Under the pieces are notes generated by a model, which saw only the letters and a list, made by a program, of their open reading frames with translations, was not told the origin of the DNA and searched no databases. A stretch of 59,031 bases of DNA, the filler included, from Sphacelaria rigidula (taxonomy: Eukaryota), in NCBI GenBank assembly GCA_964200075.2. It is 9 parts of 9 records of this genome, joined end to end, with 100 filler letters (N's around TTAATTAATTAA, not from the genome) between each part and the next. Parts side by side here need not be neighbours in the genome. Positions count along the whole stretch, not along the records: positions 26,282 to 32,751 come from CAXNAA020019879.1; 8 more parts are not named here. One strand, 5' to 3'. This document shows positions 9,700 through 52,461 of the stretch, one piece after another (within the stretch, counting starts at the first letter, position 1; every line of letters starts with the position of its first letter). Both the position numbers and the translations under genes were made by a program.

Positions 9700-9800
9700 C
9701 CTCCCCCCCCCCCTCGCGCGCCCCTGTGCTCCGTCTCAAAAGAAATGAGTACGCCCCCCCCCCATGGATGCATGATCGTAAGTACACCCCTCCTTCCCCC
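9700..9800 (+). mobile_element. Stacked ultra-short retroelement tails (family A then family B) between C-runs
   Basis: C-run, CTCCGTCTC..AAATGAGTACG, C10, ATGCATGATCGTAAGTACA, then a C-rich tract. Confidence 0.7.
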
Positions 9801-10299: not shown

Positions 10300-11064
10300 C
10301 CCTTGGACCGCGAGGGTAGTCCATGTGGATCATGCATAGTTTCTTCAAGCGGAATTGTACCGATTCAACAGATGACCCACTCTCGCCGTCCAAGGGTTAA
10401 CCCTTCGACCGCGATGCGGGTAGTCCTCCCTCTGGATCACAAATAGTTTCTTCACGTGAAATCGATGCCGATTCAGCAGGTTGTAATGCGTGAGAGGACC
10501 GCGTGCTTAGAGGACTGCATCGTTGTTCAAAACACCTCAGGATCGACGTGTTTCAAAACCAATCGGACCAGTCCCTGCAGTGACCACGCCCCTTGCCTCA
10601 ACCCCAACACTAACCCTGACCATAACCCTAACCATAAGAGGTCAGTTTACCCCTTGGGGTGGTGAGAATTTTCTCAGAAACTTATAACTTCGAACAAACT
10701 ACAACACCAACTCTAACCCTAACCCTAACCCCAACGAAGGCACACCGAGAACCCTCGGGCGAGGGGGTGGAGAGTGTAACATAGGCAAAGGGTGCGTTGC
10801 CAGACGTCAAATCGGCGCCCCAGGCGCCGATTTCGACCAAAACGCGGTATGCGCAAGCTAGGAGCACGCTTGGAGCATAGCCCTCATTAAAGATCTGTAT
10901 TTTCGCTGTTTACACTATAATCAAGTCGAACTATCTGAGAAATTTCTCACCATCCCAAGTGGTAAAATCTACGGAACCATAGGGGTGTGTAAATTCCGAT
11001 GCGGTCCCCTAAGCACGCGGTCCTCTCACGCATTATAAGGTGACCTACCCTTGTGGTGAACGGG
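10300..11064. mobile_element. Two tandem piggyBac-like MITEs; the second carries nested insertions
   Basis: TTAA|CCCTTGGACCGCG...GTCCAAGGG|TTAA|CCCTTCGACCGCG...GAACGGG|TTAA. A related copy lies at ~30360-30470. Confidence 0.8.
10482..11037. mobile_element. MITE with TGTAATGCGTGAGAGGACCGCG TIRs carrying CCCTAA-like repeats
   Basis: TIR of ~30 bp with AGGT direct repeat flanks. Further copies at 33182-33391 and 35304-35514. A different element is nested at ~10640-10975. Confidence 0.85.
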
Positions 11065-12989: not shown

Positions 12990-13041
12990 AGGGAGGGAAA
13001 GGGGGGTGTACTCATCATCATGCATGCCATAGTCATAAGAT
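12990..13041 (-). mobile_element. Family B retroelement 3' tail with C-rich end
   Basis: Reverse complement reads ...GACTATGGCATGCATGATGATGAGTACACCCCCC. Confidence 0.8.
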
Positions 13042-19711: not shown

Positions 19712-19968
19712 GGTGGGATGGAATCGTTTGAGGCATTAGACAGTAGGGAGAAAACGATGGTCATACTAGGAGATAGATGGTGGCCACAGACGGCGAAACA
19801 GGATGGGGATAAGATATGTAGAAGGTTTTTGTGTAATGTGCGGAAAAACGTAATGAGCGCCAGAATGGTGAAGGTGACTCTATGAGGAGTAGGAACGGTG
19901 CTCCGTCTCGAAAGGGGTGCGTAGTCAATGGTCAAACAACTGAGGTAAGCAACAAATGAGTACGCCTC
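19712..19968 (+). mobile_element. LINE family A 3' end
   Basis: GGMESFEALDSREKTMVILGDRWWPQTAKQ...VVNGQTTEVSNK* followed by GTACGCCTCC. Confidence 0.85.
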
Positions 19969-20744: not shown

Positions 20745-20818
20745 GGTCCGTCTCGAAAGGGATGCGTGGTCAATGGTCAAAAGACTGAGGCAAGCAACGA
20801 ATGAGCACACACACCCCT
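20745..20818 (+). mobile_element. Short family A tail
   Basis: CCGTCTCGAAAGGGATGCGTGGTCAATGGTC...ATGAGCAC. Confidence 0.8.
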
Positions 20819-20999: not shown

Positions 21000-23900
21000 A
21001 GCAATTCCAGCCTGCTCTTTCGTCATTTTCTTCCTACAGCCTTATCAACAAGGGTGGGCAATCTCTTTCTTGGCGTGCTCCTTACGTTATGTTGTCATTT
21101 CAATTTTCCCATGTATCTGTTCGTTCAAAATGTATACATCCCCAATTTTGCTCTCAATACTGTATTGCTCGTCGCTTTTGGGCATCCAAGCATTTTCTTT
21201 GCCGCTGTCATCTGTACTGTTCCCAGATGCTTCACGAAGTTCGCATTCCTTTCTCATACATATTCCAGCTTCGGTACAATCACAATCATCAAAATACAAT
21301 ACATCGCTTAACCCTAGTATCGAGGCGCGGGTCTATTGAGATCACGTCCATCTTGCCTATATACCTGTGCCCACGCTTTTCTATTTATATGTCGCTATGT
21401 GCATTCCAAGAACAGTTTTTCGGTATATCTACGCTAAGGTATGTCTGCTGATCTACAATCAGTCATTCTTCTTCGCCCCACTTTCACTTGAATGTTACCG
21501 GCTTTTTCATATCCTCGCTACGACCGCCGCGTATTTTTCTAAGTCTGCTGTCACTACCCATTTCCTTGTGTGTTCTGGCACCCTTTCTATTTGTTTTTGT
21601 AATCCTCCTGGCGTTTCTGATATCCCCACGAGATCATCTGCGAATACCAATAATGATACCGTATCTTCCTCACTCTGATTTCATGTTTTTCTACGTCTAC
21701 TGCTAATACCAGATTAATAGTCAACACTTTGAACCGAAAGTGGGTGATAACGTACATCCTTGCTCAACTACTTGTAAAACATCGACATATCTCGATATTT
21801 CCCCGTCTAGCATCACAGTACTTCTCAAACATTCTGCGACATTTTCCACACCTTTTCTCTGATTTCCCACACCGTTTTCTACAACTCATTTCTCCATACT
21901 GTGCCATAGGCCTTCTGTGCGCCTAGAAAGAAACGGTACGTTGTTAGCCCCGCGTCTTTCCTACCCTGAATAATCTCACCTAATGTGTACACATGGTCTT
22001 CGCAGCTACGGCTTGGTCTAACCCCAACTGCTCTTCGCTGATTTTTTCTTCCTTTTTCAGGATTGTTCACATTCTATTATTCAGAATATTGCGAAATGCT
22101 TCCCCTGCTGTGCTTAGTACCTTCATCCCTCTATAATTCCCTGGGTCAGCCTCAATTCCTTTCTTGAAAAGGTATACTATTCATTCCCTCCACCTCTTGG
22201 GTGTGTACTGGTTTTCCCAGATCCAACCATACAACATAATCATCATGGTAATCATTCCCTTCCCCCCGTAATTCACGATTTTATTCACCATTTCGTCTGC
22301 CCCTGCTGCCTTTCTATTCTTGAGTTCAGCTACACATTCCTTTACTTCCTCTCCTGTAAAATATCTCTGCAATTCTGAAACCATTAACTTCCCCCTTTTG
22401 ATGCCTCTACATTCGCCTCTTCCCACGCGTTCATTTCTTTCTAGAACTTCGCGTCGAACCTCCGGATAGCTGTTGGTATTCCTCGTTTCTGGTAGTGCTT
22501 TGTTGGTAGTTCTCTTTCTTCTTCGAACGACTAACCATTTTACCGTTTCATGCTCCAGGTGTGGCTATTCCCTTGTCTGCCTCTCTTGCCTGCTTGCCCA
22601 GTATCCCTTTCATCCCTACCCACATTTGCTTTCATCCCGCCATCAAAGCCTTCTTTTCTTTTGTGAAGTACATTTTTTCATTCCCCCTTCTTTTTCTTCT
22701 CCGCCATGTATTTTGCCTCTTCTCTGGCATTAGCATACTCCCCGCATCCTTCAGTACTTTCACCCGACGCTTGTGCAGCGTGGACCTCTGTCCTCACTCT
22801 TACAACCTCTTTTACTTGGTCACCCCACCATTTTACTGCTCGATTGCGTGCTGTGGTCTTGACCATTCCCTCCCATCCTTGTATAATCTTCGCTTCTGCC
22901 CGATCCCTCTCTATTTCGGTATTAGCAGTTTTGTTCATCTCCTTTTGGAACTCTAGCTGCTTTCCCTTTATTCATAGTTTATCTATTCTCCATTCGTACA
23001 CCTTCCTACCTCGCATATTTCTTATAACTTTCGTCTGCTGGCCGTCCATATGAGGCAGTGATCCGCAGTTCTTACGTCCGCTGCGTGTACGCGTATTTCC
23101 GTTTCCATACTACTTGCACATTCTACCACTGTATAGGCGAGGACATAGCTTCTCCCCTTTGTTTCCGTTGTTTAGCCTACTGCGGATCTGACTTTTGACC
23201 CTGTTGTTTAACGTCTTTATCTCTTCCTTCTCCAGAAACTTCAGTGTCATCACCCCGTTAACAGCCGATCATCGAAATGGAGGACGGAGCTCTTCATGGA
23301 GGATGACGACCAGGATTCAAATCTTCGGATCCACACTAAATCTTCGAAATATGGTTCCATTCCTTCACCTACTGGTAGGTATTCACAACTGCTACACGCC
23401 CTACAATTTTGGATTCGGATCACCTAAATTCCTCGAAAGTGGTTTTTCATCTAGGACCCTAACATTTCGGTTACATCAATCCAAAATTGTAGGGCGTGTA
23501 GCAGTTGTAAATACCTACCAGTAGGTGAAGGAATGGAACTATATTTCGAAAAATTGGTGTGGATACGAAGATTTGAATCCTCCGGGTTGTCATTCTCAAT
23601 GAAAAGCTCCATCCTCAATTTCGATGATCGGCTGTTCGTTCGTATTCTTGTTCGTTTCCCCGTATTGCCCAATATTATTATTCGGTTGGCTGGTTTTTCC
23701 AATCCTTGCATTCATATCATATACGAACATTGCTGACAGTGCTTGTCTTGCCTTTCATACTGCCGCACGTCTGCTGCTATCTTCCCCAATTTCTTCTGTG
23801 CATTCGTTACCCAGCCCCTTTTACCGTACTATTCAACCCTAGGGGCATAGTAGTACTCCTCAAGAATACATATTTCTCTCCCCGCTGTCCTGGTATCCTT

Positions 23901-24117
23901 ATCCACATGCTCTCGCCGATTTTTTTTGTGTTTGGTCACTCCTGTTACGTCACACAGGTTTTCCTTGACCAGGGATCCTACTCCCCTGCTCCAATATTTC
24001 CTTTTTTTCTGTCCTACTATTTCCTATCCACGCGTGCTCTTCAACAAATCATTCTATTCCCCCATCAATTTCTCCAATGAATCTTGGATTCCCACTATAT
24101 CTAGATCAAGCACAGTC
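21000..24117 (-). mobile_element. Degenerate APE-RT LINE ORF2
   Basis: RT fragments ELKNRKAAGADEMV..YTPKRWRE and QGRKDAGLTTYRFFLGAQKAYGTVWRNEL. Homologous along its length to 35520-38070. Confidence 0.9.
23260..23636. mobile_element. MITE with AACAGCCGATCATCGAAAT TIR and 4-bp TSD CGTT
   Basis: CGTT|AACAGCC...GGCTGTT|CGTT. Interrupts the LINE. Confidence 0.9.
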
Positions 24118-24241
24118 GGGGGGGGGGGGGGGGGGGGGTGAGGGGTTGTTCACGTATGGGTCACCCCGTTCGTGTAAGCCAAAAANNNNNNNNNNCTCCT
24201 CCCTGGACCCCTCCCCATCTCGGGACGAGCCGCAAAGGGAA

Positions 24242-24279: not shown

Positions 24280-24940
24280 GGGCTCCTCACGGTATACGTC
24301 ACACGTACGTTACACGTCACAAACGTTACGTCACAAGAGTGTGACGCAACGTAGAAAACGTTTTTCGGATACGTCAAAAATGTGACATGACATAACGTAC
24401 CGGTGGAAAAATGTGACGTGACGTAACATACAGTTTTTCAAGACGTCACAAATGTGACGTAACGTGATGTATTTTTTTATACGTCACACTAATTTATTTC
24501 GGAACATTTATGTGACGTGTAACGTATGAGACACGTCACGATAACATTCCAAAATACGTTACACGTCACAAGCGTAACGTATATTATTCACTACACGTCA
24601 TAAGAAGGTTTCAAAATATGTTACACGTCACAAACGTAATGTATACTATTCGTTGTACGTCACAATAACGTTCCAAAACACGTTACACGTTACAAACGTA
24701 ACGTATATAATATTCGTTACACGTCACAATAAACGTTTCAAAATACATTACTGTGACGTGGCGTAACGCATAACTTTTCAAGACGTTAAAAGTGTGACGT
24801 AACGTGACGTACCGGTAAAAAAATGTGACGTGACGCAACGTATAACTTTTCATACGTCACAAAGTGTGACGTGACGTAACGTATAACTTTTCATACGTCA
24901 CACTTATGACGTAACGTGTAACGTGTAACGTGAAGAGCCC
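24280..24940. mobile_element. Foldback-like TIR element filled with ACGT/GTGACGTAAC motifs
   Basis: Left end GGGCTCCTCACG, right end CGTGAAGAGCCC. Internal blocks of CGTTACACGTCACA occur in both orientations. Confidence 0.75.
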
Positions 24941-26281: not shown

Positions 26282-26412
26282 GGCGGGGGGGGGGCGGGGG
26301 GGGGGCGGGGGGTCGGGGGGGGGGGGGGGGGGGGGGGGGGGCGTATTCATTTGTTGCTGGCCCAAGTCGTTTGACCATTGACCACGCATCCTTTTCGAGA
26401 CGGAGGGGGGGA
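26282..26412 (-). mobile_element. Short family A tail flanked by C-runs on the element strand
   Basis: G-run, GCGTATTCATTTGTTGC...CGAGACGG, G-run. Confidence 0.75.
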
Positions 26413-29448: not shown

Positions 29449-29567
29449 GTGTGGCGGTGATCATTTTGCATGATGTACCTATGTACATGCCTGTGGAGAA
29501 AATCTGAACATGAGGCGAAATCGGAAGTCTCGTCAAAGCGTCGATCCGTGAACAATGGAAAAAAAAT

Positions 29568-30809
29568 CACACGTGTAACAGGACAGCTCATGAACTAGCT
29601 CATCAGCGGGCGGTAGCTCACTTGTAGCCAAACATGTACATGTGAGCTACGTCCGATAGCTCAACACAAGGTATACGTGCGCTGATGAGCTACGAGTTGG
29701 TAGCTCACCCAGGACAAATATGCGTAGTTCATGTAGCTGTCATAGCTCACCCAAGACGAATCTGAGCTGATGAGCTACGGGTTGGTAGCTCACCTACCGC
29801 AAACGTGTGTAACTCATACAGATCCCACAGCTCACCCAGGGCGAATATGAGTTGATGAGCTACGGGTTGATCGCTCACCCAGGGAAAACATATGCGGATG
29901 AGCTACGCTCGATAGCTCACCCAAGGCAAACATGTGTAGCTCACGCAGCTCTCGTGGCTCACCCGGGGAAAACACGAGCGGATAAGCTACGCCCGGTAGC
30001 TCACCCCAGGGACACATGATCGTGGCTCACTCCCGTCATATGCCTAGCTCGCCGCTGGTCAACCCCGTGTCGCTCACGGTGTAACATTTTTGTTCGAACA
30101 GATGGCGCCACATATCGTTAGGTTGTGATGTTTTGCCTCACTCCTCGCGATAGGTAAAAAAGAAGCCAACACATATCCTCGTTCGCTTGGTCGCGTGCCT
30201 AAAAAAAGTATCAATATTCAGTGTCTACAATAATCGACCGATTCATTTCTTTTGATCGATTGGCCGCGAGGGTACGAGTCCATCTAGCCATGCATACGTT
30301 TTTCAGTTGAAATCGGAGCCGATTCAATAGATTACTTATGCTCACCGTCAAGGGGTTAGCCCTTTGACCGCGAGGGTTGGCGATCTGATCAGTCAGCATA
30401 ATTAACTTTATTTTTCGGGTGTGAATGATGCCGATTCAGAGACCTCCTACCCTCGCGGTCAAACGGATAAACAATCGTAGCTCTCATAGCTCATCCAGGG
30501 CAAACATGTGTAGCTCATGCAGCTCTCATTGGTCATCCAGGGCAAACATGTGTAGCTCTTGCAGCTCTCATAGCTCATGCGGGGCAAACATGCGTAGCTC
30601 ATGCAGCTCTCATAGCTCACCCAGGGCGAATATGAGCTGATGAGCTACGAGTTGGTAGCTCACCCAGGAAGAATATGAGCTTATGAGCTACGGGTTGGTA
30701 ATTACCTATCGCAAACGTGCGTAGCTCATACAGCTCTCATAGCTCACTAGGGAGCTACGCTCAAAAAGAGCTAGCTCGAGCTATAGGGAGCTGATCTGTC
30801 TGACGTGTG
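29568..30809. mobile_element. Second AGCT-array TIR element, opposite orientation, in the putative CENP-S intron
   Basis: Ends CACACGT..AGGACAG and CTGTCTGACGTGTG. Same arrays as 3113-4665. TSD degenerate (A-rich). Confidence 0.85.
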
Positions 30810-31204
30810 GAAAAATATGGAATTTGTATTCTCTTGGACTTTTCTACTTTTGGGGTTTAGAACCATTCCGTTGTCACAACACAAAACGCCCTTTTCATGA
30901 ACATGTGGATATTTGTCATCTATATAGAAAATAGTAACGGAGAACCCCTGACCAGTTTTGACCCTGCAGTCAATTGTGTGCAAAGTCGGTGTGCATGTGT
31001 GCTTCATGTCTTCACTGGATACAACGGCAAGCGACAGTATAAGGGTGCCATCGCTCTCTACTGAACACAATTCACTGCATGCTGCTGATGCCTCTGCCTA
31101 GTGCTCAACAACAATACTACAGGCAGTGTGAAGCTACGCTGGGAGCACATGAGGAGTCAGGCAGGCGGCGTAGACCACGGACAGAATACAAAACAACTTG
31201 TTTG

Positions 31205-31605
31205 TACCCATCTATGCTTGATTTCCCATGACCAAAATGAGTCGTGGGGGTAGACAGTGGATGAGTCCAATGTAGTCCACCCAAACCGGAAGAACGTGCT
31301 CATTTTGACGACCGTGATTGGTCAGAATGGGCATCCCGCGCTTCTTGGGCCTCGTGCACGGCTCATAATTTTCCGCGGGAAACTTTCAAACACACATGGT
31401 TGACTTGGTAAACTTTTCGGCTCCTCTTCGAACAGGCACCCCCCGTCTCGAAAGGGATGCGTGGTCAATGATCAAACGACTAAGGCAAGCAACAAAGTAG
31501 TACCCTCCCTCAAAAACCGAACCCCCCGGCCACTGGAAACCCCCGGATGTCTCCGGACTTTCAGCCTCTGAAACTTTTTCGAGGCGACGCTCGCTGTCTA
31601 GGGGT
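31205..31605 (+). mobile_element. piggyBac-like MITE end with a family A tail inserted in its C-run
   Basis: Colinear with ~33075-33613 except for an insert at ~31443-31503. Confidence 0.8.
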
Positions 31606-32299
31606 TTACCAGGGATCTGTCGGGAGAAGAGTTTTGAACAGGTAGCCGCTTCCCAGGGCCTTGTCCCCCCCCCCTACCGTAAGGCATTTTTTCGAAAATT
31701 GTCATGATTTTTTTATTTTTCGTGTTTCATATTTTGGGAGACATTGATCAAGAACCACTGGCGAAAACCGAAAAGTCTGATGGACATTGCGAGGTTCGTA
31801 TATTAGCTTCCGCTCCTTGACTGCTCTGTCCCGATGAACTCGGATGTCAGCGATGCTCACACACATGTATGCACCCGAGTGCACGGCAGCGACAGCCTGT
31901 GCCAAAGTAGTAATAGTATTTCTCACGCCTCGCCAAACTTGCCCGAACTATTGGTGGGTACTCGAGGCACACGACGCGGAACATTATCCCGTAAATGTAA
32001 TCATGGTAAATGATGAACTTGGGGAGGGCTGCGTGTCCGCCATCTCAGCGGTCTCCAGGCCAAGGGTCTCTGTACAGGGGAGCTGACCACATCCGCCAAC
32101 GCCTCGGCTCTAAACTAGGGGACAGGGCAATCGCCAAAAACCGGTATACCGACGGTATTTTCGCCAACATCCGGTATAGCTCACACCCTCCCTCAGGAAA
32201 GCTACTAATGCAGCCGCCTGATTGGCCACATCCCGCCGCGTGCGCATTCTGGCGAAAAAACACACGGTATCCCTGTTTGGGGAAACTCAATTTGGCTTT

Positions 32300-32383: not shown

Positions 32384-33074
32384 AATGCTCAAGTTCCCGG
32401 CCAGCCCCAAAACACACACGGTACCATATTCTATGTTACGTTTCGACGGCTGGGTTGGAGATAATAATATCCGGAGTTTCGTTTCGTCTATCCGATCACC
32501 CGCCGTCCTGGAGCTTTGCCCGTCAATCCGACAGCAAGCACGCTTTGTCAATCCGTCAACGAACACGCCTTGTCGACGACCGACAAAGCACGTGGTAATC
32601 CACGGGTTTGAAGAAAACCTTCAGTTGAAAGCACACGGCGCCTTGTGTACTCCTGGCTGGCTGTCACGAGCCCACGAACTCACGACCGAGACCAACACGC
32701 CGAATAATACCTCTTTGCAGGACCATGCAAACTCCATCCAACTCATTCTCANNNNNNNNNNNNNNNNNNNNNNNNNNNNNNNNNNNNNNNNNNNNTTAAT
32801 TAATTAANNNNNNNNNNNNNNNNNNNNNNNNNNNNNNNNNNNNNNNNNNNNAACGCCCCTGTCTACCGTAGAGCAATTGCTCGGCGATGGCGGTCGCCTC
32901 ACCGTCGAAGTACTTGTCTACATCTACGTGCGTCGGGTATTCGTCGCCGCCGCTCGCATGTTGCACCATGACGTTTTATACCAGATGGAGGTGTGGAGCA
33001 AGTACGACGCTCGGGCAGTACTGAGCAGACAGACACAGGGTACCGAAGATGCTCGAACACCTACTTTTTGGTTA

Positions 33075-33613
33075 TATCATCTATGATTGATTTGGCATGC
33101 TCAAATGAGATTTGAGGGTAGACAGCGAATGTGTCTACCAGGTGAAATGTGCTCATTTTGACGACCATGATTGGTCGGAATTGTAATGCGTGAGAGGACC
33201 GCGTTCCTAGAGGACCGCGCCGTAGTCCGAAACACCCCAGGATCGACGTTTTCGAAACCAATCGGGCCAGTTCCTGCAGGAACCACGCCACGGACCCTAA
33301 CCCCAAAACTAACCCTAACCCTAACCCCAACCATAGGGATGTTCAAATTCAGGTGCGGTCCTCTAAGCACGCGGTCCTCTCACGCATTACAAGAATGGTC
33401 ATCCCGCGTCTCTCAGGCCTCGTGCACGGCTCATAATTTTCCGCGCGAAACTTCCTAACATAGATGGTCGACTTCATGAGCTTCTTTCATGCTCCGCGGA
33501 GAGACACCCCCCCCCCCTCGAAAACCCCCCCCTCCCGAGCTCTGGAAACCCCCGGATTTCTCGGAACTGTCAGCCTGTACAACTGTTCCGAGGCGACGCT
33601 CGTCGTCTAAGGG
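33075..33613 (+). mobile_element. piggyBac-like MITE end with nested TGTAATGCG MITE (33182-33391)
   Basis: Ends GTCTAAGGG|TTAA. Homolog of 31205-31605. Confidence 0.8.
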
Positions 33614-35303
33614 TTAAAGCCTACGATGCACACAGGAATACATTATTCTTGCGGCCAAATAACATGGTACTGTACTCATGGGTGGCGATGCCGGGTCCAT
33701 CTCCAGTTTGCCTTCTTCGTGCCTGACAGAAAGTTTTTGTGTGTCCTCGACCTGAGTTGTTCAAAGATTGTCGGCCTTCCCCCTAAGTTAATCCTATCGG
33801 CGGGACGAAGCCTGCGCCAAGCGTGAGTCGCCTCCGTGTTGATGACGTTACAGTGCTCGAAATTCGTCGTTTTGTATACAAACCTATCTTTTTCCACGTC
33901 TCCCGCTTTCGAACGTGGATACGTGGATACACGGGGCTGGCAGAATCCCGAGGTTGTTGGTTGACGTGCGTGTACTTGTTTCAGTTGTCCGGCACGCGAA
34001 GGCCCGAGGCTTCGCGCAAAACCACGAGGGCTTCCTCGTGAGTGGTGTCGCTCACGGTAGTCCTCTTCAGGGATTTATACGGTTGACTGAATGTGGAGTA
34101 GGTCGTGCTGCGGACAGGAGAGTGGGCGCCATGGTCCTCGTGCTTGCCGACGTGCTGCTCCTGCTGCTCCTGCTATGTGCGATGCAGGTTGCTGGTCACC
34201 AGCAACAGCAGCCTCCTAGGCTCAGCAGAGAATGTGGCATTGCCATCGCGCGCCTGTCCTGCTGCGCTTCTGTTGATGGAGGTTTCGGTGTCAATCGTGT
34301 TGCTATCAGCGGGAGCGCCCCACGACGACTGACGAGGCCAGCTCGGCTGTCGCCGTCCCTCGTGCCGTGACGGCAGGGTCGACCGGGTGTCACTCGTGCA
34401 ATATTCACCATGGGGCTGGATTGTTGCAATCAGCTAATGTGAGATAATCAAGCAATCAATCATCAATCAAATATGAACTACTGACATTGACGGCGACCCA
34501 TCTCTCGTGCTTCCTCTTGTTGTGTGAGGCACGAGAACTTCTGTATCATCCCCCATGTCAGCAACGCAGCGGAGCCTTGGCTGTAAAGACGGTGTGTCGT
34601 GTCTGCGGCGAAGGTAAAATTAAATGTGCCCCCCCCCCCCCCAAAGCGTAGGTCCCAACACACGGGCAGCAAGGAAAACATCCTGCTTTTTTCTTAAATC
34701 CTGCCATTTAGCAGGATTCTTGAATGAAGCAGGATGAATCTCCCTCAAAGATCCAGCTGAAATTCCTGGATTTTCCTGTAGTGATGACTCGCGGAACATC
34801 AAAGTTTTGGTCTTTTCCAAGAAAGGTCGCGAACTTATTTCCAACTTTCAACCATATGTATTGGAAAACGTGACGTGGCGATGCGCATTACACTAATACT
34901 TGGTGAAACTGTCAAATGAAAGCTGTTCATCACCGTTCTTCACCGTTCTTGGCGCCCCTTCACGTCATAAACCGGGGGGGATCTTCCTCAAAGATCCATT
35001 TGGAGAATCCTCGATGTCATTTCGGGATTTCCGTTGACTTATCTCAAACTCGTAGTCCAGGACATCCTGGACTATTCGTCCAATGATCCAGGATCGCCGA
35101 GTTTGAAATACCACTAGCAAGAGCTTGCACAGAAGAGAACAGATGCTTCCCCAAACCTGGGACAAGTACGGCTGGGAGCCCTACAGAACGTTGGTGCCCC
35201 TCAGAGTCAATGACCACGGTGTTCAGAACTCCTTTTGCTGTATCATGTAGTAGATGGCGTCCCGCTGTTCAAATAGTCATCGGTGGATCGAGTTTGACCA
35301 GCT

Positions 35304-35514
35304 TGTAATGCGTGAGAGGACCGCGTGCTTAGAGGACCGCATCGGAATTTGAACATTCCTATGGTTAGGGTTACGGTTAGGGTTGGTGTTGGGGTTAGGG
35401 TCAGGGGCGTGATCCCCGGAGGGACTTGCCCGATAGGTTTTAAAGAATGTCGATCCTGAGCTTTTTCGAACTACCATTTGGTCTTCTAAGCACGCGGTCC
35501 CCTCACGCACTGCA
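35304..35514. mobile_element. TGTAATGCG-TIR MITE with TTAGGG-like array
   Basis: Same TIR as 10482-11037. Internal GGTTAGGGTTACGGTTAGGGTT. Confidence 0.85.
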
Positions 35515-35519
35515 ATTTT

Positions 35520-38500
35520 TCTACTGTTCCTGAAATTGCCACAAAATCATCCGCAAACATCAATGCTGATACCATATCTTTACCCACCTTGACCCCTTGC
35601 TTCGCTGCTTCTATTGCGATTATCAAGTCGTTGGTAAATACCTTGAACAAAGTAGGTGATAACGTACATCATTGTGCAACTCCTTAAAAAGTATTGGGAT
35701 GTTTCGATATTTCCCCGTCTAGTATCATGGCACCTTTGGAACATTCTGTCATCTCCTTCACCATTCTCCACACATTTTCTCTGATCCAAGCTTCTCGCAA
35801 CTTTTTCCACAACACGTTTCTCCATACTGTCATAAGCCTTTTGCACGTCCAGAAAGGAACAGTACGTTGTCAGCCCGGCGTATTTCCTACCCTGAATAAT
35901 CTTTCTTAGTGTGTACACATGGTTTAACCAACGACGGTTTGGTCTAAATCCTGCTTGTCCCTGGCTGATTTTCTCTTCCTCTTCTAGCATCGTTCCTACT
36001 CTATCGTTCAGAATCTTACAGGATATTTTCCCTACCGTGCTCAGTAGCGTTATCTCTCTATTGTTTCCTGGGTTAGCCTTGTCTCTTTTTTTGAGAAGGT
36101 TGACGACTACTCCCTCTCTCCATCTCTTGGGTGTGTACTCGTTTCCCCAGATCCAGTTATACAGCATAACCATCACGGTAATCTCTCCCCCCCGTACTTG
36201 AAATTTTTCGTTCATTATTCCGTCCGCCCCTGCCGCCTTTCTGTTCTTGAGTTTAGCTATGCGCTCCTTTACTTCATATCTAGTGAACTCTCTCTGCAAT
36301 TCTTTGAAGCCACTATCCTCCCGTTTCGATGTCTCTACATTTACTTCTGCCCACGCGTTAATTTCCTATTCGAACTCTATGTCGAACTCCGTGGTTGTTT
36401 CTGATGTTCCTAGTTTACGGTTTTGCTCGACTAGCACTTCTCTCTTTCCCTGCGAACTACTGACCATTCACTGCTCCGTGTCCGGAGTGTAGCTATTCCC
36501 CTGTCCATCTCTCCTGCTTGATTTCTCGTCATCCCGTTTATTCCTGCCCACATTTGTTTGATCCCGCCAACGAAATCTTCATTTGCCTTATCTACTACAC
36601 CTTCCCATACTTCCTTCTTTTTCTGCTGTACCATATTTTTAATTTCCTTTCGAGCTTTAGTATACTCCTTCCATCTTACCGTAGTTTTTCTCGACATCCA
36701 CCTCGCGTGGGGCTCTCTCCTTACTCTGATAGCCTCTTTCCCTGCCCCATCCCACCATTTTACTGCTCTGTTGCATGCGATCAGTTTCCTCCCTATGACC
36801 TTACTCGCTGTGTTCTTGACCATCTGCTCCCATCCTTCTACGATCTTCGCTCCTGCCCGATATCTTTCCATTTCGGTATCCACTGTGCCTACGCGTTCCA
36901 ACAGCTCGAAACATTTCACTGCATTTTTGGCCATCTCTTCTTGGAACTCTTGGCGTTTTTCTTCCATATCTTGCTTATCTATTCTCCATTTGTACAACTT
37001 CCTACCCCGCCTACTTTTTTCAGCTCTCGTCTGTTGGCTTTCTGTCTATATTAAGCAATGATCTGTGGTTCCCACATCCTCTGCGCATACATATACTTCC
37101 ATTTCTTTACTATTTCGATGCTCCACCACTATATAGTCAAGAATGGGGTGTTCTCTCTTTCTTCCTTCGCATTCTCTCGTCCATGTCCATTGCGCCTCTG
37201 GTTTTTGTTGTTCATCGTTCATCATCTTCATCTCGTTATGCTCGAGGAACTTGAACATTTCTACCCCATTCGTGTTCTTCTCATCTTCCCCGTGTTGCCC
37301 AATAATATCATCCGGTTGACCTGCTCTTTCCACCCTTGCATTGAAATCTCCCACTAGCATTACTTCTCCTTGCCTTTTGTACTTCTATATATCTAACACC
37401 ATATTCGTGAGATTCAGAGTGTATTTTCAGATTCAGAGTCAGGATTCCAAACGGAAGAACTGCTTTCTTTGTGGTCAATTCTTATGCGAAACAGTTTGCG
37501 TCACTAGTCAACCAACCCGAGTAATAAACGTGCGTGTTTTCACAGCCTCCAATAATGTTGGTTGATTCATGACGCGAACTGTTTCGCATAAGAATCGACC
37601 ACAAAGAAAACAGTTCTTCCGTTTGAAATCCTGACTCTGAATCTGAAACTACACTCTGATTCTCACGAATATAGTGTTATCTGCTGCTCTCTCTCCAAGC
37701 CTCTGTGTATATCGTTCACCTTGCTCTTCGCTTCTGGGGGCATGTAGATGTTACCTATGAAGAAGTCCTTCGTTCCCCGCTTTCCTGGTACCCGCATCCA
37801 TATGATCTCGTCTAATTTCGTGTCGTCGATCACGCCTATAATGTCACACAGATATTCCTTGGCCAAGAATCCTCCTCCCCCCGCTTCCCTCTTCTTGGAC
37901 TTCTGTCCCTTCCGCTTCTTCCCCATCCATGCGTACTCTTCAATTTTGTATCCTATTTCCGTCCCCTCTGTCTCCCGTGACTCTTGGATTCCTCCTATAT
38001 CTAGGTCGTGTTTACTCACTTGTTGCGCTATCTCTTCTAGTTTGCGCTTGTCTGTGGCGAATCCACACACAGTTCACGATCCTATTCTTAACTTCCTTCC
38101 CGAATCATTATCTGCTCTCGTGTTGTCTACTGTTCTCTCTCTGTCGCTTTCACTTTTACTTTCCCTCGCTTGGTTGTTTTTCCCGTTTCTGCATTTGTTT
38201 TTGTCTATTTGCCTCGGGCCGCTATGTCCCCTCCCCTTCCCCTTCTGGACACTCACCTGTTCCTGCCTCTCTTCCCCTCTGTATACCCGTGCACGACGTC
38301 CTAGGTTCGTTGTTCCATTACCTATGCATACTCTCCACCCTACTCTTCTAATCCACGTCGACACCTTGCTTGTCTCTACGCAATCCCACTCCTTGCCCGC
38401 GCTATGTTTTAGCGTGACTCGGAAGTGTTTTCCCTCCCTTTTTACACACCCTCTTGCCAAACAGTATAGTCGAACTCCATTGTATTTCCGTTCAAACTCT

Positions 38501-38740
38501 ATTCTCGTCATATCGCCACGAAGTCCGAATAAGAGTACTACTAGTACTCTACCCGTCCACTCTTTACTTCTCCACCCGTCCTTCCTTACCGTCTCTCTCT
38601 CGATCTCTTTCGAGATAATCTCCAGCTTGTTCGTTTCAATTTTATTGGTGGGATGTAGTCAGCGCACTGAGACATCCCAATCCTACTACTCATTGGGGAT
38701 CAGGTGTCTTTCAGTGTTTTTGCTTGCTCACCGACATTAA
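35520..38740 (-). mobile_element. APE-RT LINE with apparent 5' region, 3'-truncated
   Basis: APE endonuclease motifs DLDIGGIQES, NIYMPP, LVGDFNARV, ILDYIVV and TDHCLI. RT motifs KRDKANPGNNREITLLSTVGK, QAGFRPNR and FLDVQKAYD. Short upstream ORF at 38074-38511. Confidence 0.92.
37395..37678. mobile_element. Hairpin MITE (~120-bp TIRs) with 4-bp TSD ATCT
   Basis: ATCT|AACACCATATTCGTGAG...CTCACGAATATAGTGTT|ATCT. Splits the LINE endonuclease. Confidence 0.9.
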
Positions 38741-39688
38741 ATGATGCCTCCAATACGTGCTCGTAGCCTGACGACAAGTTCAACACCGAGTGATGCTGCG
38801 ATAGGGTCTGCAATTTTTGGGCCAAAACCGGCCTGATTCAGGGGTTCCTAAAATTAGGAACTACACAAGAATATGGGTCAGGATATCCCCGTGTGCAAAT
38901 TCATTCGGGATATCCCTAGCAAATTGGAAGAAAACCCTGGCGTACTCTCACCTGTTTCGAAAGTCGTGTTTTGGATGAGATAAAGGGTACCTAACAATGC
39001 TACTCTCAGGCCGTAAAAGTGCTGACCCTCTCGCAGCATCACTCCACCTTTGACACAAGTACCCCACGTTTGTGCCAGCCGATCCTCAGGCTAAACCATC
39101 CAGGCGACTCACGATCGTATTTTTTATCTTTTTGCCCATTTGCTGTACTGGATACTTTCCTGAAGGGAGGTCATTTTCACCGTATAAGGTTCAAGGACGG
39201 CTTGCATAACACAAGGCCTCACTCACACCGGGATGTCCCGTACATTCCGTTTTCCACTGCGTGTACGATTCACCATGGGTCGCGACTCCAGTGGTGCTTC
39301 CGAGTAGACCTTCGCTGCCGGNNNNNNNNNNNNNNNNNNNNNNNNNNNNNNNNNNNNNNNNNNNNTTAATTAATTAANNNNNNNNNNNNNNNNNNNNNNN
39401 NNNNNNNNNNNNNNNNNNNNNTGTTTCTGCCCTTCCCCGGCTGCAGGGGGGGGGGGGTACAAGTCAAAAAAAAAAAGGAAAAAAAAAAAATTATACCCCC
39501 CCCCCCCCCCCCCCCCTCCCCACCTGTTGAGAAATCCTCTGAGGAAAACATGAAACGCACGGCAGCTTGTGACCACGGCTGTATTCGTCGTGGACGAGTT
39601 AACGTGCGATCTTACAACCAGCCAACAAGCTAAAGTCAAGCAACTGAGTAAATCGACAACGAAAATCCGGAAATATTTCGATGCGCAG

Positions 39689-39938
39689 ATGCGGCTACCG
39701 CGCTGCGCGTCATGGCGCTCCTCCGAGATGTGGCGAATGGTGGCACCACCGTGCTCTGCAGCCTGCACCAGCCCAGGCCTCGAATGCTCAACCTGCTGGA
39801 CAAGGTCATGCTCTTGTCGAGAGGGCAGGTGGCGTACTTCGGATCTCCGTCCGATGCGAAGTCGTTCTTTTCGTCGATCGGTCGACCGTTTCCCGCCGGA
39901 CAACCGCATCCGGCAGACGCCATGCTCACGCTTTGCAG
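39689..39938 (+). CDS. ABCG (White-type) transporter exon, NBD D-loop to H-loop region
   Basis: AG|..AATALRVMALLRDVANGGTTVLCSLHQPRPRMLNLLDKVMLLSRGQVAYFG...HPADAML|GT. Confidence 0.92.
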
Positions 39939-40113
39939 GTACCTTGACCCCCCCGTCTGAGTAAGCTGCTCTACACGGTACCTTAGGAGCCAGTACTGTT
40001 CAGAACAAGACATCGCCAGGAACGGTTCAGGAACCGAAGCCAGTACGGTTTAGTGCAGCAGCAGTATTTTTCTTGAGCACGCACGCTCAGAACTCGTGTC
40101 CTTCGCCTGCAAA

Positions 40114-40159
<46 letters not shown>

Positions 40160-40169
40160 TTCCCTTTTT

Positions 40170-40659
40170 TTCCGCGGCAACTGGGGGATGGGGGGGCGCG
40201 GCCCCCTCTCTTCCAACGATCCCCTTATTCTGAAGGCACTCACAGCGCATCCGGCGACGCGGCAACGTTGACCGTAAATCCGTTGTCGACTCACAACAAA
40301 GATTTAGACCTCGAAGGGACTTCTCTGAGCCGCCATTCATCCCTACGCGGACCCCCGCTTCGCCCGGCCGAGCCGTCGGAAGCCGAGAGCGGGTTTTCAT
40401 CGGAGCAAGGCAGATGTTCCATGTTGTGCTGCTGCGGCAGTGACCCGTGCGGGTCAGGCGGGGATGGTGCCATCGCTGTACCCCCGAAGGCGGGTTTCCT
40501 AGTGCAAACGGAGGCTTTATCAAGACGTTTGTTGTTGAGGGCGGTGCGGCACCCTCTGTTACTGATGCTGCACTTTGGAGGGGCTGTGGCGATGGCTGTT
40601 TGCCTTGGGACTATATTCCAGGGGAAATTGGAGTTTACCTTCGATGGCGCGCAAAGCAG
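40170..40659 (+). CDS. ABCG exon: linker and first TM helix (5' boundary obscured by low-quality C-run)
   Basis: GFLVQTEALSRRLLLRAVRHPLLLMLHFGGAVAMAVCLGTIF...GAQSR, ending at an AG|GTGCGT donor. Confidence 0.85.
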
Positions 40660-41331
40660 GTGCGTTGTCTCTCGGCGAGAGTCAGACGAATCACCTCTGG
40701 TTCATATCACCAAATTTACGATTTTTGTCTACTTTTTTCTTTTAGGTCTGATCGCTCGGAAAAGAGATGAAGGTTGACCGCGGGTCCAAAAACGTCTCTA
40801 CAGTATGCATATTTTGCGCTATTTTTCCCACGTGCCTGCCTGGGGTGAGCGTGCGCACCTGGGGTGTATGCCATCCTGAAAGCATAGCCCAAGGATCCAT
40901 TCGTATAGTACGAATCAGTTACAGTTGAAGCGAGCGATGTTCAGACGAACCAGTTTTCATTCGACCCTTGGTCTTGTATGCAGTACAGGGACGATCCCAG
41001 GTTGGTCGCCAGCCCGGCATGACCTCCACTATAGTGGTACAGTAAAACTACTTGATATTAGTATAGCGATTCGGACTTGTGGCGCGTGATTTTGACTGTA
41101 CTGTGGTGGGGCCTCCACTGTTGTTCGTTGCTTTTGGGCTGCGCTGCCTGTCGGTGTTATTCGTTGATGCTGGGTGGTGTTATTTTGTGTCTTGTGCGTG
41201 TGTGTGTGTGTTTTTTTTTTCTGCTGTCCGTTTTGCTTGTCTCGCCTTGTGTGTATGTGGTCGGGTTTTTTTCATGCGTCACGTATGTGTGAGTTCGCTT
41301 GTATCTCTCGTGTCACTCTACCCACATGTTT

Positions 41332-42897: not shown

Positions 42898-43132
42898 TAT
42901 AAATATATATATATATACATTTATACTCCAGTATAAATATTTTCATGTATACATACTTTTGAAGACATTGAGTCAGGTATTAGCAATCAAGTTCTTCGTC
43001 CCAGGTGCGGGTAGAGGTTTGCTCACTCCATTGAACGATCAGGATCACAAAGATTTGGATTTATCGCTAGCGTCGTTCTGCAGAGTACCGACGTTGGCGT
43101 TGCCTCATGCTGACCAATAATCATGTACTACT

Positions 43133-43369
43133 GTCATCCAAATGCGAGGTAATAGGTAATCAGTAGGCTTCGGGCCGAACTGTTTCAGCAGGATGCAGCT
43201 GTCCTTTCATGCGACTCGCCAAACATAGCACGGCGCTCCGCGCTTGGTGATTGTGAGCCTGGTCCGGCGAAAACCCGGCGGGCTCCGTCCCGGCTTTTGT
43301 AGTGATGCTAGGTCAAGGGTCTTCTGACTCGGCATGCGAGATGATGAGTACACCCCCGCTCCCCGCCCT
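43133..43369 (+). mobile_element. Family B retroelement 3' portion
   Basis: Homologous to 44746-45075 and 46330-46610. Ends ATGAGTACACCCCCGCTCCCC. Confidence 0.8.
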
Positions 43370-43379
43370 CTGCCTTCAG

Positions 43380-43650
43380 GCTGGGCGTTCTGTTTTTCCT
43401 GCTTCTGTACCTGTCCCTTCTGTCCCTCACTTCACTGCCGGTGTGGCGAGAGGATCGACGGTTGTTCCTCACGGAAAGCATGGGAGGAGCCTACGGTCAC
43501 CTGTCCTACTTCTTGTCGGTGGTATTGGCGGACATTCTGCTGGTCAGGGTTATCCCGCCGCTTGTTCTGGCCGTTGTGGCCTACCCGCTCATGGGCCTGA
43601 ATGATTTTTCTGACGCGGGTTGGACGCTGCTGTGGTTTGCTCTCATCCTG
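43380..43650 (+). CDS. ABCG exon: transmembrane domain
   Basis: CAG|G then LGVLFFLLLYLSLLSLTSLPVWREDRRLFLTESMGGAYGHLSYFLSVVLADILLVRVIPP..., ending CTG|GTGAG. Phase matches the previous exon. Confidence 0.92.
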
Positions 43651-43974
43651 GTGAGTGAGAGTGTGTTGGAGCATTCGGCCGGTAGGGGGTGATCATGTCG
43701 GTGAAACACCGACGTCACAATCACCGTAGGTGATGTATATATTGTTGGGATTGATCTTGACATTCAATATTCATTTAGTAACAATTATCGAGTATTTAGT
43801 TTGTTTTCAATATTGATGTATGTAATAGAAATGGTGCAGTGCTGGTATTGTTGATGATGTTATTATCAAGGGGTGGCAGGCACATCTCTCGATTCCTGCA
43901 CACTAGCCTTCCCTTGCGCCAACGCTGTTTCCTGTTTTGACCTTTTGTAGAGTGCATGTGTGTGTCTTTTTGAG

Positions 43975-44046
43975 GCGGGGGGGAGGGAGGGCGTACTCAT
44001 TTGTTGATTGCCTAATGGTCGTTTGACCATTGCCCACCCATCCCTT
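43975..44046 (-). mobile_element. Short family A tail with C-run
   Basis: G-run then GCGTACTCATTTGTTG..GGTCGTTTGACCATTG. Confidence 0.75.
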
Positions 44047-44088
44047 TTTAATTTTTTGTGTACTTGGTTTTATGTCTGTCTCTGTCTC

Positions 44089-44122
<34 letters not shown>

Positions 44123-44178
44123 TTGGGGGCGTTCCGCTGTCCCCGCTTTCCAACAACCTCAAAACGGTNNNNNNNNNN

Positions 44179-44215
<37 letters not shown>

Positions 44216-44745
44216 TTTTCCCCCCCCCCCCCCCCCCTTCCCCTTCCCCTTTTGGGGGCTTCTCGGTATCAAAGCATTGAACAAAACTACAGTAGTTCGT
44301 AGTTTGATCAGCTATTTTTTTTCGATCTATCCTGTGAGCTGCTACGTCGCATTTTTTTTTCTTTTGGGGCGCAGGAGGGGTCTTCGCGCACAGCCTCGCG
44401 CCCCAAGAGGTTTGAGGTACAGTGCCATCTATTGATCACCACTGTGCGTTCTGTATACATTGTGCACACGAGTAAGGGGCCCTATGTCACTCAGTTGATC
44501 ACCGGCATTACACACGCAAGTGCTCGTTTTGAGCTTGAAAAAGAGATGTGAGTGGGGGAAGGGAAGGTAGCCTAGGTAGTGAGAGACCCCCCCCCCCCCC
44601 CCCCCCCCCCCCCGCACACCGGGGGGCGACAGGCAGAGCAGGAGGCNNNNNNNNNNCGGTTGTTCTTTTTGGGGGTGAAAAAAGGGTGGGGGGGGGGGGG
44701 GGGGAGGGGGGCCGGGTGGGGAGAGGCCCCCCCCCCCCCCCCCCT

Positions 44746-45075
44746 TGATGCGAGATGGGAGACACCCATGAGGCAGTGTAGAAGCCGTGGTTGTCTCTGG
44801 AAGTGGCGATACCAAAAAATGAAGTAACTCATAGTAGGCTGTCGTTTAAATGCAAGATAATCAGTAGGCTTCGGGCCGAACAATCCTAGCAGGATGCAGC
44901 TCATCCTTCATGCGACTCGACGAACACACCACGGCGCCTCGCGCTTTGTGATCGAGTGCGGGCCTGGTTCGACGAGAACCCGCCGTGCTCCGTCCCGTCT
45001 TTGTAGGGATGCTAGGCCAATGGTCGTATGACTACGGCATGCATGATCATGAGTACACCCCCTCCCCCTTCCCCT
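44746..45075 (+). mobile_element. Family B retroelement flanked by C-runs
   Basis: C-run immediately upstream; ends CATGAGTACACCCCCTCCCC. Confidence 0.8.
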
Positions 45076-45224
45076 ACGGCGCACGCCATCCCCCATGTCG
45101 ACACTCTTTCTGGTATCTTGTTCTTTCAAAACATTCGCGCACCAAACGTACACAACATTCTCCCCACCCAACAGCTATTCTTGTTGCTTCGCTACATGTT
45201 GCCGTACTTTGGCATATCCTTCAG

Positions 45225-45375
45225 GTGCTTTCGAATATTGCGGTGGCGTTGGGTGCTATGGGTGTGGGTGCCCTAGGCCTGGCCTTAGATCTGTCGAATC
45301 TACTGGGAGGGCTCATGGTGCTGATTTTCATCTTGTTCAGCCGCTTCTTGCTCAACGAAAACAGCATTCCCGCCG
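45225..45375 (+). CDS. ABCG exon: transmembrane domain
   Basis: CAG|VLSNIAVALGAMGVGALGLALDLSNLLGGLMVLIFILFSRFLLNENSIPA G|GTGAG. Confidence 0.9.
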
Positions 45376-45991
45376 GTGAGTATTTGGCCCCTACTGCTTT
45401 CTGTGCCCGCGTCGATGGTCTATATAGTGGTGTAACTGACACCGTTAGGGACAGGGGTGGGAAAGAACGTGCATACAATTCCCGCCTGACACGTCTTTGA
45501 TCCTCCTGGTTTGACGTCTTCTGTCACGTGTACGAGCTGGGCCAGCCGAAAAACACTACCAGCTGGCCCAGTTCGTACTTGATCTCCCTCGTTAGAAACG
45601 TGAGGGCGTACGTTGATGAGGAAAAGTCTGTTTAACTGAGGTTGTTGGACGACAGTCGACGCAGTGCGCCGGAGTGGTAATCCAATCCGCTATCCCGGAG
45701 TGTAGGGCGTGTTTACCGAGGGCGTGGAGGAAATAGGTTTGATCCCTCCTGGGACCACGGACTCGTCCCGACGAAGGGGAGGGGTTGAAAGTAAGACACC
45801 TTGCCCCCTGCCCCCCCCCCCCAAAAAAAAAAAAAAAGCCCCCCCACCCCCCCCCCCCCCCCCCCTCCCCCCCCCCCACCCCCGGGGGATGNNNNNNNNN
45901 NNNNNNNNNNNNNNNNNNNNNNNNNNNNNNNNNNNTTAATTAATTAANNNNNNNNNNNNNNNNNNNNNNNNNNNNNNNNNNNNNNNNNNNN

Positions 45992-46610
45992 GGAGTAGGA
46001 GCCCCGCTCCGTCTCGAAAGGGATGCGTGGTCAATGGTCAAACGACTAAGGCAAGCAACAAATGAGTACGCCCCCTCCCCTAAGCCTGGCCCGGCGAAAA
46101 CCCGGCGTGCACTGTCCCGGCTTTGTTGGGGCGGACCCCCCTACGGGGTTGGCATCGGTTGTCGATGAAATTGTACAACACGCTACTCACGCCGTGAGCT
46201 ATGCAATCAGGTTTGTTGCCGATTTTTGTTTGTGCGGTAAAAATGATGGTGGTAGACCTAGATTTATATTGTGCGAGGTGGGAGATCCTCAACTCCGCGC
46301 AAAGGGGATGGTATACCTACGTGATGTTGGGACAACCATGAGGCAGTGTAAAAGCCGTGACTGTCGCTGGACATGGCGATACCAGAAAATGACTAAGCAA
46401 CTCATTGTAGGCTGTCATCCAAATGCAATATCATCAGTACGCTCCGGGCCGGGCAATTTTAGCGGCACTCGCCGAGCACACCACGACGCTTCGCGCTTGG
46501 TGAGATGAAATGCGAGCCTGGTTCGGCGAAGCCTGGTGTGCTCCCTGCCGGCTTTGTAGGGATGCGATGTCAATGGTCTCACGACCATGACATGCAAGAT
46601 CATGAGTACT
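45992..46610 (+). mobile_element. Family A tail followed by family B fragments
   Basis: The A tail ends at 46080 in CCCCCTCCCC. B fragment at ~46083-46125 and B copy at ~46330-46610. Confidence 0.8.
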
Positions 46611-46945
46611 AGGCTTTAGCTTTGTATGCGCGCGTAAGGTTTAGCTTAATTTGTTTTTCATGGGCTTCAAATGAGTTTTTTTTACGAGCTTGAGGCGAGC
46701 TCAAAATTTCTGACAAGCTTACACGATGTGCTTGAAACGAGCATAAGGTTGCGATACATTTTCATGCGCCTCCTCCAGCCATTGCAGCAGCTGTCCGAAC
46801 GTGCCCCCCACGGCCTATTGCGTGACTCGTCACCCGTCACTTAGTACCCCCGCCCCCCTCCCGGTGTTCAGTTCTTCGGCGGTTCTTCATGTGGTCGTTC
46901 GTGAGTTCGTCGAGTACTCGATGAATATAATATACTGTATGATCA

Positions 46946-52376: not shown

Positions 52377-52461
52377 GGGAGGGGGGCGGTGTACTCATGA
52401 TCATGCATGCCATAGTCATCAGACCATTGACCTCGCATCTCTACAAAGCCGGGACGGAGCA
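52377..52461 (-). mobile_element. Family B tail with C-run
   Basis: Reverse complement ends ATGATCATGAGTACACCGCCCCCC. Confidence 0.8.

Follow-up and report, generated by a model that had tools for sequence, protein, structure and literature searches.

Empty and filled C-runs in a piggyBac-like host repeat

Two colinear copies of one host repeat lie on the plus strand of the 59,031-nt stretch of Sphacelaria rigidula DNA analysed here (the window). The copy at 31209-31606, which aligns by BLAST to 33078-33615, carries an insert in its C-run, whereas the copy at 32852-33617 is empty at this site, ends in AAGGG-TTAA and is split by a second, unrelated insert at 33179-33401. The empty copy reads GAGACA-C11-TCGAAAACC, with the C11 run at 33507-33517. 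The filled copy passes from C6 (31439-31444) into the 3′ end of a LINE family, termed family A (31443-31503), then into CCCTCCC (31503-31509) and back into host sequence. The preliminary description of this DNA had proposed such a pair, and both the sequence and the alignment bore it out; according to BLAST, the two copies are paralogues of only 78-80% identity, not alleles. The insert corresponds to the last 61 nt of the LINE, is 5′-truncated and matches the family 3′ end at 95%; it codes for the end of the ORF, its translation matching the C-terminus of the homologous protein P0001 described below. Its first two C are shared with the C6 run, the target run at the 5′ junction, while CCCTCCC at the 3′ junction comprises tail plus target. 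The target-site duplication (TSD) of this insertion falls within the run and is therefore unresolvable.

The host is a ~0.9-kb TTAA-flanked repeat, the fetched copies of which have the termini TTAA-CCCTT...AAGGG-TTAA. The right end AAGGG-TTAA was present in most of 20 copies inspected, and the matching left end was found ~0.8-1 kb upstream in 8 of the 20. Its CCCTT...AAGGG termini and TTAA TSD are those of a non-autonomous piggyBac element with terminal inverted repeats, and the same termini are given for PiggyBac-1/-N1_Ec32 of Ectocarpus in the supplement of PMC12477816.

To census the host copies, the host right flank alone was used as the anchor; it had 33 exact matches, 30 of which were fetched and scored by eye. 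Twenty-three copies were empty with a C-rich run, two (L232 and L233; L numbers denote fetched loci) carried a family B tail in the run, and five were uninformative owing to a contig end or replaced upstream sequence. The family A copy L058 also appears, by eye, to occupy the same host site. The 23 empty copies and the independently filled ones indicate that the run is ancestral and has been hit more than once; the insert is therefore not, as might have been feared, shared by most host copies. Two further searches, one with the empty allele (30/30 loci empty) and one with a query that included C-runs, were excluded from the main counts as biased by design. Among the rows shown for the contigs of four public runs, there was no joint skipping the insert, and none bridged the site by a 31-letter rule. 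Two other host repeats have C-runs that were hit several times with different 5′ ends (L006, L028, L051 and L052; L039, L068 and L080).

Family A is an APE-type LINE

The RT piece at 35880-36362 had 23 protein matches, the best of which was P0001 (1360 aa, 73% identical). P0001 is a single ORF with APE and RT domains (Exo_endo_phos and RVT_1), and Pfam assigned PF03372/PF14529 and PF00078 to both P0001 and P0002. The copies of family A in the genome map along aa 1-1360 of P0001. Among solved structures, the best matches were RT regions of L1 ORF2p; the APE domain, compared by sequence, matched only ExoIII (E=0.15) and no LINE endonuclease.

The ORF was joined to the family A tail in 12 fetched long-copy loci, 11 of which had been picked as long bodies, which identifies family A as the 3′ end of the LINE itself. 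The stop codon and the C-run are 5 nt apart, so that the conserved 3′ RNA module doubles as coding sequence (L201-L217, L291-L293 and 19712-19963 in the window). The C-terminal motif encoded by this 3′ end is kept in Ectocarpus proteins, and three relatives from metagenomes (77-97% aa identity) also end in TGA-(5 nt)-(C)n. No relative was present among 97 pattern matches in viral contigs. The 5′ UTR of family A opens with an array of ~60-nt tandem repeats (L205, L211, L216 and L218).

The APE domain is N-terminal to the RT in one reading frame, LTRs are absent, and the copies are 5′-truncated with a fixed 3′ end, a simple-repeat tail and TSDs of variable length, as in APE-type non-LTR retrotransposons. 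The long copies seen in the S. rigidula genome are all broken, and family A copies are mutually ~77-87% identical. Homology to Ectocarpus proteins and a matching annotation suggest that family A is a brown-algal RTE-X-type LINE.

Family B shares the 3′ end of family A

Family B is non-coding and ~560 nt in length (consensus 562 nt), and its last ~65 nt are common to family A, of which it is the non-autonomous partner. Exact anchors occur 1285 times genome-wide for family A (30-mer) and 1783 times for family B (24-mer). The 5′ head of family B repeats a sequence located 99 nt from its 3′ end. The lengths of B copies cluster at 28-56, 95-99, 298-305 and 561-562 nt, and the 5′ end of full-length B starts with the same sequence as the 95-99-nt class (L151-L180, L251-L290), as if this common start motif defined RNA 5′ ends by a promoter or a cleavage site.

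Copies of A and B stack in one another's C-tails and form mixed chains (L011, L020, L030, L170, L176 and L259; 9703-9800 and 45992-46140 in the window). An older A or B tail served as the landing site of 6/67 A copies and 7/59 B copies. Short A tails were also seen in antisense orientation within C-tracts of the family's own RT coding sequence (L016 and L046): the target of L016 is CCCC inside the RT gene of the element, and the empty form of the L046 site is found at 36187-36193 in the window.

Other copies in the window

Two degenerate long bodies of family A lie on the minus strand. The body at 35510-39321 retains part of the 5′ UTR, APE and RT with stops and frameshifts but has lost its 3′ part; it was recognized by tblastn to P0001 aa 1-930 (54-74% identity), by Pfam RVT_1 and by the match of its 5′ UTR to other long copies. 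The body at 21011-24107 was assigned to family A by tblastn to P0001 aa 195-1127 (34-65%). The latter is the long LINE that had been described as abutting a C-run, and its 5′ junction indeed lies 10 nt from a C21 run (G on the plus strand, 24118-24138); its 3′ end is lost, so that its TSD is uncheckable, and N gaps are close by. A 5′ UTR repeat unit of family A follows directly after a C14 run at 13142-13227 (minus strand), as judged by eye against the 5′ tandem repeats of L205 and L216. At 1-471 (minus strand), the 3′ part of family A (tblastn, aa 1201-1359) breaks off at the contig start, directly ahead of the tail.

C-runs at both ends of further copies, another claim of the preliminary description, were present at 9703-9763, 26315-26411 and 44727-~45066. 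Within these intervals or next to them, an internally deleted A copy and a B tail are stacked between C-runs (9727-9786, plus strand), a short A copy is flanked by C7 on the 5′ side and by a long C-run on the 3′ side (26342-26404, minus strand), and a B copy lies between C18 and CCCCCTCCCCC (44745-45056, plus strand). On the plus strand, a family A 3′ end at 19712-19963 is followed by CCTCC, and the C-tail of another at 45992-46070 contains the start of a B copy. A further B copy is located at 43154-43352 (plus strand), and B 3′ ends lie at contig edges at 52391-52461 and 13002-13040 (both minus strand). Three counter-examples had escaped the earlier account: a B copy represented by its 3′ part (46331-46609, plus strand) has no 3′ C-run, a short A copy (43985-44047, minus strand) has no 5′ C-run, and a short A copy at 20747-20808 (plus strand) ends in CACACACACCCC.

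Several other repeats were observed in the window. A second repeat of ~220 bp, bounded by terminal inverted repeats and containing (CCCTAA)n-like units, occurs at 33179-33401, 35295-35517, 10481-10639 and 10975-11042; the empty host repeat is split by one of these copies, and another is located at the break-off point of the long LINE. A degenerate second LINE at 5069-6284 (minus strand) is 24-27% identical to P0001 and presumably RTE-like by its motifs; we looked for its tail and found none. Related arrays of ~84-bp tandem units lie in opposite orientations at 3110-4666 and 29567-30812. An ACGT/GTGAC-rich, internally palindromic repeat (24283-24940) is located beside a G34 run, and a similar sequence is found upstream in L204. 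Long open frames surround a C45 run at 39370-40777; they may be exons of a host gene, possibly ABC-transporter-like to judge by a motif.

C-runs often precede the elements genome-wide

We analyzed the junctions of both families with internal anchors. The first 90 of 100 listed places for family A yielded 91 distinct anchors, 67 of which were free of N and had a 5′ flank of 60 nt or more, leaving 61 after six copies in older tails were dropped. For family B, the first 30 places and a further 40, picked at a distance from contig ends among the 70 remaining on the list, yielded 71 anchors, 59 of which were usable and 52 remained after dropping seven tandem copies. On the 3′ side, 75/91 A copies read TACG followed by ~90% C over six positions, and B copies read TACA followed by C to the same degree. 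On the 5′ side, a C-run of at least 6 within 25 nt of the junction was present in 28/61 A and 26/52 B copies, compared with 23/1745 (1.3%) and 24/1374 (1.7%) background windows from the same loci. Thus, C-runs are not confined to 3′ ends; such a confinement would have spoken against the earlier claim. With a threshold of at least 4, the counts were 42/61 and 39/52 against backgrounds of 7.0% and 8.8%, respectively; 19/61 A and 13/52 B junctions had no such run. G-runs of at least 6 occurred at none of the 61 A and 52 B junctions.

The bias is genome-wide and strand-specific. Among the 1315 plus-strand sites of the 23-mer that starts most short copies, 278 of which continue into LINE sequence, C5 was found within 20 nt upstream at 632 and G5 at 11. 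The minus-strand count (3126) includes sites counted several times, and the genome-wide ratio is thus based on the plus strand only.

Could the C-runs be an artefact of assembly or sequencing, with poly-G/C called at gaps? The assembly is fragmented (244 Mb in 27,214 contigs), run lengths near N gaps are unreliable, and 22 of the 100 listed family A tails fall in the first 120 bases of a contig. On the other hand, the runs are impure and come with matching TSD markers, the same ends were found in contigs of four public runs and in three metagenome contigs, and the same annotation was given to Ectocarpus elements curated on the v5 reference genome, according to the parts of PMC12477816 consulted. 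The four public runs, one of which may be the source sample, come from two studies and have the same C-runs at both ends. We consider an artefact scarcely credible, and only the exact run lengths stay uncertain. By their position at contig starts, family A tails seem to rank among the main reasons why the assembly is broken.

Targets are degenerate C-rich tracts

A TSD was called only with a unique marker after the run, and cross-paired flanks served as the control. Marker TSDs were found in 18/53 A and 12/52 B copies, as opposed to 11/2756 and 12/2652 cross-paired controls (~0.4%). In the remaining 35 A and 40 B copies, the lack of a marker TSD is likely due to nesting, to decay or to a position of the TSD within the run. 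The 5′ copy of the TSD, which represents the preserved target, contained a pure C-run of 1-14 (median 5) for A and 2-23 (median 5.5) for B, and the 10 nt before the marker had a median of 7-8 C in the TSDs of both families. The pure run was no longer than 4 in 8/18 A targets. The C-rich stretch on the 3′ side was usually longer than the target run (median 10.5 for A and 8.5 for B) but sometimes shorter: the target and 3′ counts were 6 vs 3 in L068, 7 vs 3 in L270 and 5 vs 3 in L265, in contrast to 3 vs 14 in L048 and 4 vs 13 in L115. These run lengths indicate that the target is a degenerate C-rich tract, that the tail adds C, and that the nick can fall inside the run.

The claim that the family is site-specific for C/G homopolymers was thus retained in part. 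The C-run does pre-exist at the target, being ancestral in the host repeat and contained in the 5′ TSD copy, and the insert is missing from the majority of host copies. What acts on it is only a strong preference for sense-strand C-rich tracts, given the range of pure runs in the 18 A TSDs; with such variable runs and unrelated flanks, these targets also differ from the one defined target in fixed phase of Tx1/R1-type elements. The opposition of encoded tail and target, under which the C-runs had been discussed, proved to be a false one: both hold, as the 3′ stretches are usually longer than the target run.

A tail without a target would require that the 5′ C-runs are older copies' tails or later expansions of a run. 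Slippage is known to expand homopolymers, and the A and B copies sitting in older tails are real examples of the former; these tandem cases, nevertheless, were removed before counting, the run is ancestral in the 23/30 empty host copies, and the 5′ and 3′ runs precede the same unique marker. An explanation by the encoded tail only is therefore very improbable.

A 64-70-nt length class of family A

The lengths of family A copies pile up at 64-70 nt (33/67), with 16 copies of exactly 66 nt. The class was noted among copies L031-L120 and at 31443, 9727 and 26404 in the window. Eight of the 66-nt copies have marker TSDs, and several of these eight have 0-2 extra bases at the junction, which argues that they are real insertions rather than joins by C-microhomology. 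Genome-wide, the preceding six LINE bases were present at only 556 of 2633 sites of the 23-mer, compared with 5/9 long copies, a small control (n=9); contig breaks at the same point inflate this deficit.

That the 66-nt peak marks a module boundary common to both families was not supported, as family B has no peak at the equivalent place. A tRNA-like or ribozyme terminal module was rejected: the folding energies of five copies were not beyond those of shuffled sequences (z from -0.77 to +1.44), and HDV and hammerhead topologies did not fit by eye. Rfam returned 11 weak matches of miRNA models over G/C runs in 43000-46700, far below the gathering scores and none on the tails. A and B have two short stems in common, with differing loops and no compensatory changes. 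RT drop-off, RNA cleavage or a separate mini-master is a possible origin of the class. Our literature search, outside of which lie Repbase Reports and most subscription journals, found no truncation class of ~66 nt.

We also considered a C-based alternative to poly(A)-primed retrotransposition, in which APE would nick in G-runs, a dedicated step would make or expose the C-tail of the RNA, and a ~66-nt 3′ module overlapping the ORF end would be released by RNA cleavage or programmed RT drop-off, giving about half of the insertions. We regard this scheme as unlikely; if true, the ~66-nt module would be a mobile unit of minimal size, creating fresh targets at every jump.

A probable C-for-A mirror of L1 priming

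The LINE anatomy, the pre-existing C-rich targets, the fixed orientation, the TSDs, the extra 3′ C and the stacking in older tails were all observed directly. As a whole, they are very probably best explained by an RTE-X-type LINE and its B partner that use target-primed reverse transcription (TPRT) as a C-for-A mirror of L1. By analogy with established LINE biology, both families would insert by TPRT. The strand with the G-rich tract would be nicked in or at the tract, the G-ending 3′-OH would pair with the C-tail of the RNA and prime cDNA synthesis, and a second-strand break ~5-25 nt away would generate a TSD starting with the C-tract. Under TPRT, the fixed orientation makes the G-rich strand the presumptive primer strand. 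We think that the bias arises from both the endonuclease and the pairing, with pairing contributing the larger part.

The preliminary description had centred on the endonuclease. If the endonuclease sets the target, APE would read and nick G-runs as in Tx1/R1-type elements, and the C-tail would be a by-product of copying the target run. This agrees with the strong one-strand bias and with L068, L270 and L265, whose deficit of C on the 3′ side relative to the target implies that a long tail is unnecessary and that the nick can be internal. The loose targets, as seen in the 8/18 A TSDs with short pure runs, speak against it, as do L048 and L115, where the C of the 3′ side greatly outnumber those of the target. 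Moreover, in the parts of PMC12809410 available to us, the L1 endonuclease is described as modestly specific and its consensus as partly a product of priming. Since the L1 consensus reflects both steps, an endonuclease-centred reading is not the default, and we hold it to be possible but rather doubtful.

Conversely, priming alone might select the sites, with nicks being broad or located at lesions or unusual structures of G-runs and only those ends that pair with the C-tail being extended. G-runs are prone to oxidation and to G-quadruplex formation, which counts in favour of such a damage-assisted route. The loose target, the fixed orientation and the variable TSD length also agree with it, as does the L1 precedent (PMC12809410, as far as consulted). 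Nonetheless, the regular short TSDs suggest staggered breaks made by an endonuclease, and the homologue P0001 keeps a full-length APE domain. This route has some plausibility, short of an even chance, and we prefer the combination of endonuclease and pairing in TPRT.

Comparison with known systems

The insertion bias is real, strong and well supported, and it is a preference in a lineage already annotated for it. It had been taken for a specificity that was not described, which does not hold: it is annotated for RTE-X elements of Ectocarpus (PMC12477816), and (C)n targeting is reported for Penelope-like elements of Chlamys (PMC8557442). In Supplementary Material 3 of PMC12477816, RTEX-1_Ec32 is annotated as 'single EN-RT ORF; (C)n 3′' and RTEX-2_Ec32 as '(C)n termini/TSD', and 'C-rich' is the TSD entry in all six RTE-X rows, including RTEX-1/-2/-N1/-N2. 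The phenomenon is thus on record for Ectocarpus RTE-X as a spreadsheet annotation. The trait appears to have been recorded but not analyzed in the main text of PMC12477816, because 'C-rich' and 'homopolymer' are absent from what we saw of it, and the passages searched contain no quantification or mechanism of C-rich targeting. Our search, with Repbase Reports and most subscription journals outside it, yielded no publication specifically on the targeting of C-runs by APE LINEs. The present analysis contributes numbers for the bias, a test on empty and filled paralogues and a sharply delimited class of ~66-nt copies.

Family A resembles RTEX-1/-2_Ec32, as annotated in the parts of PMC12477816 consulted, in its single EN-RT ORF, (C)n 3′ end, C-rich TSD and thousands of mostly short copies, and it shares with that lineage close Ectocarpus homologues and a ~600-bp partner. 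Ectocarpus proteins account for 8 of the 23 matches to the RT piece and are 49-64% identical; in the comparison with RTEX-1/-2_Ec32, Ectocarpus proteins of 58-60% identity to the RT piece have the C-terminal motif in common with family A. The eight proteins are unnamed, and their assignment to RTEX was made by elimination among the LINE types in Table 1 of PMC12477816. Family A differs in residing in another brown-algal genome, in which its copies are older (~77-87% identity) and broken. The (CAA)n tail of Ectocarpus RTE-1/-2 is not that of family A, which is (C)n. RTEX-N1 is described as 604-607 bp with a 60-bp 3′ end shared with the LINE and possible tandem copies (PMC12477816, in part). Compared by description, family B is alike RTEX-N1/-N2_Ec32 in length (~560 nt vs 604-607), in carrying the last ~60-65 nt of the LINE, in its C-rich TSDs and in its tandem copies. 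Identity with the named RTEX families is probable from the annotation and homology, the families having been compared by description. An RTEX-1 is also listed for Saccharina, with no target data in that account as far as consulted (PMC4421812).

The Chlamys elements, which are reported to be inserted at (C)n repeats (PMC8557442, in part), belong to a different retroelement class with a GIY-YIG endonuclease, a Penelope-type RT and pseudo-LTRs, whereas Pfam detects only APE-type domains in the family A homologues. The shared 3′ end of A and B fits the stringent type of recognition reviewed in PMC3747384, as far as that review was consulted. 

Like mammalian L1 and Alu, A and B have a homopolymer tail and a TSD starting with the same base; unlike them, they use C for A, family A has a single ORF, and what its partner has in common with it is a defined 3′ sequence, not just the tail. 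Microsatellite-specific LINEs of the Tx1/R1 clade are APE LINEs that reside in simple repeats at a fixed phase of a defined repeat. The target of A and B, in contrast, is a degenerate C-rich tract. Every insertion leaves a further C-run that can be hit in turn, so this preference may account for the abundance of C/G runs and of contig breaks in the genome. L1 has a loose consensus target, 5′-TTTTT/AA, and a modestly specific endonuclease, and the consensus reflects both nicking and priming (PMC12809410, in part). The respective roles of endonuclease and pairing are still argued for L1 in that account, and a LINE with a C-tail and C-targets, in effect an L1 with the base exchanged by nature, could be used to tell the preference of the endonuclease apart from the pairing of tail and primer.
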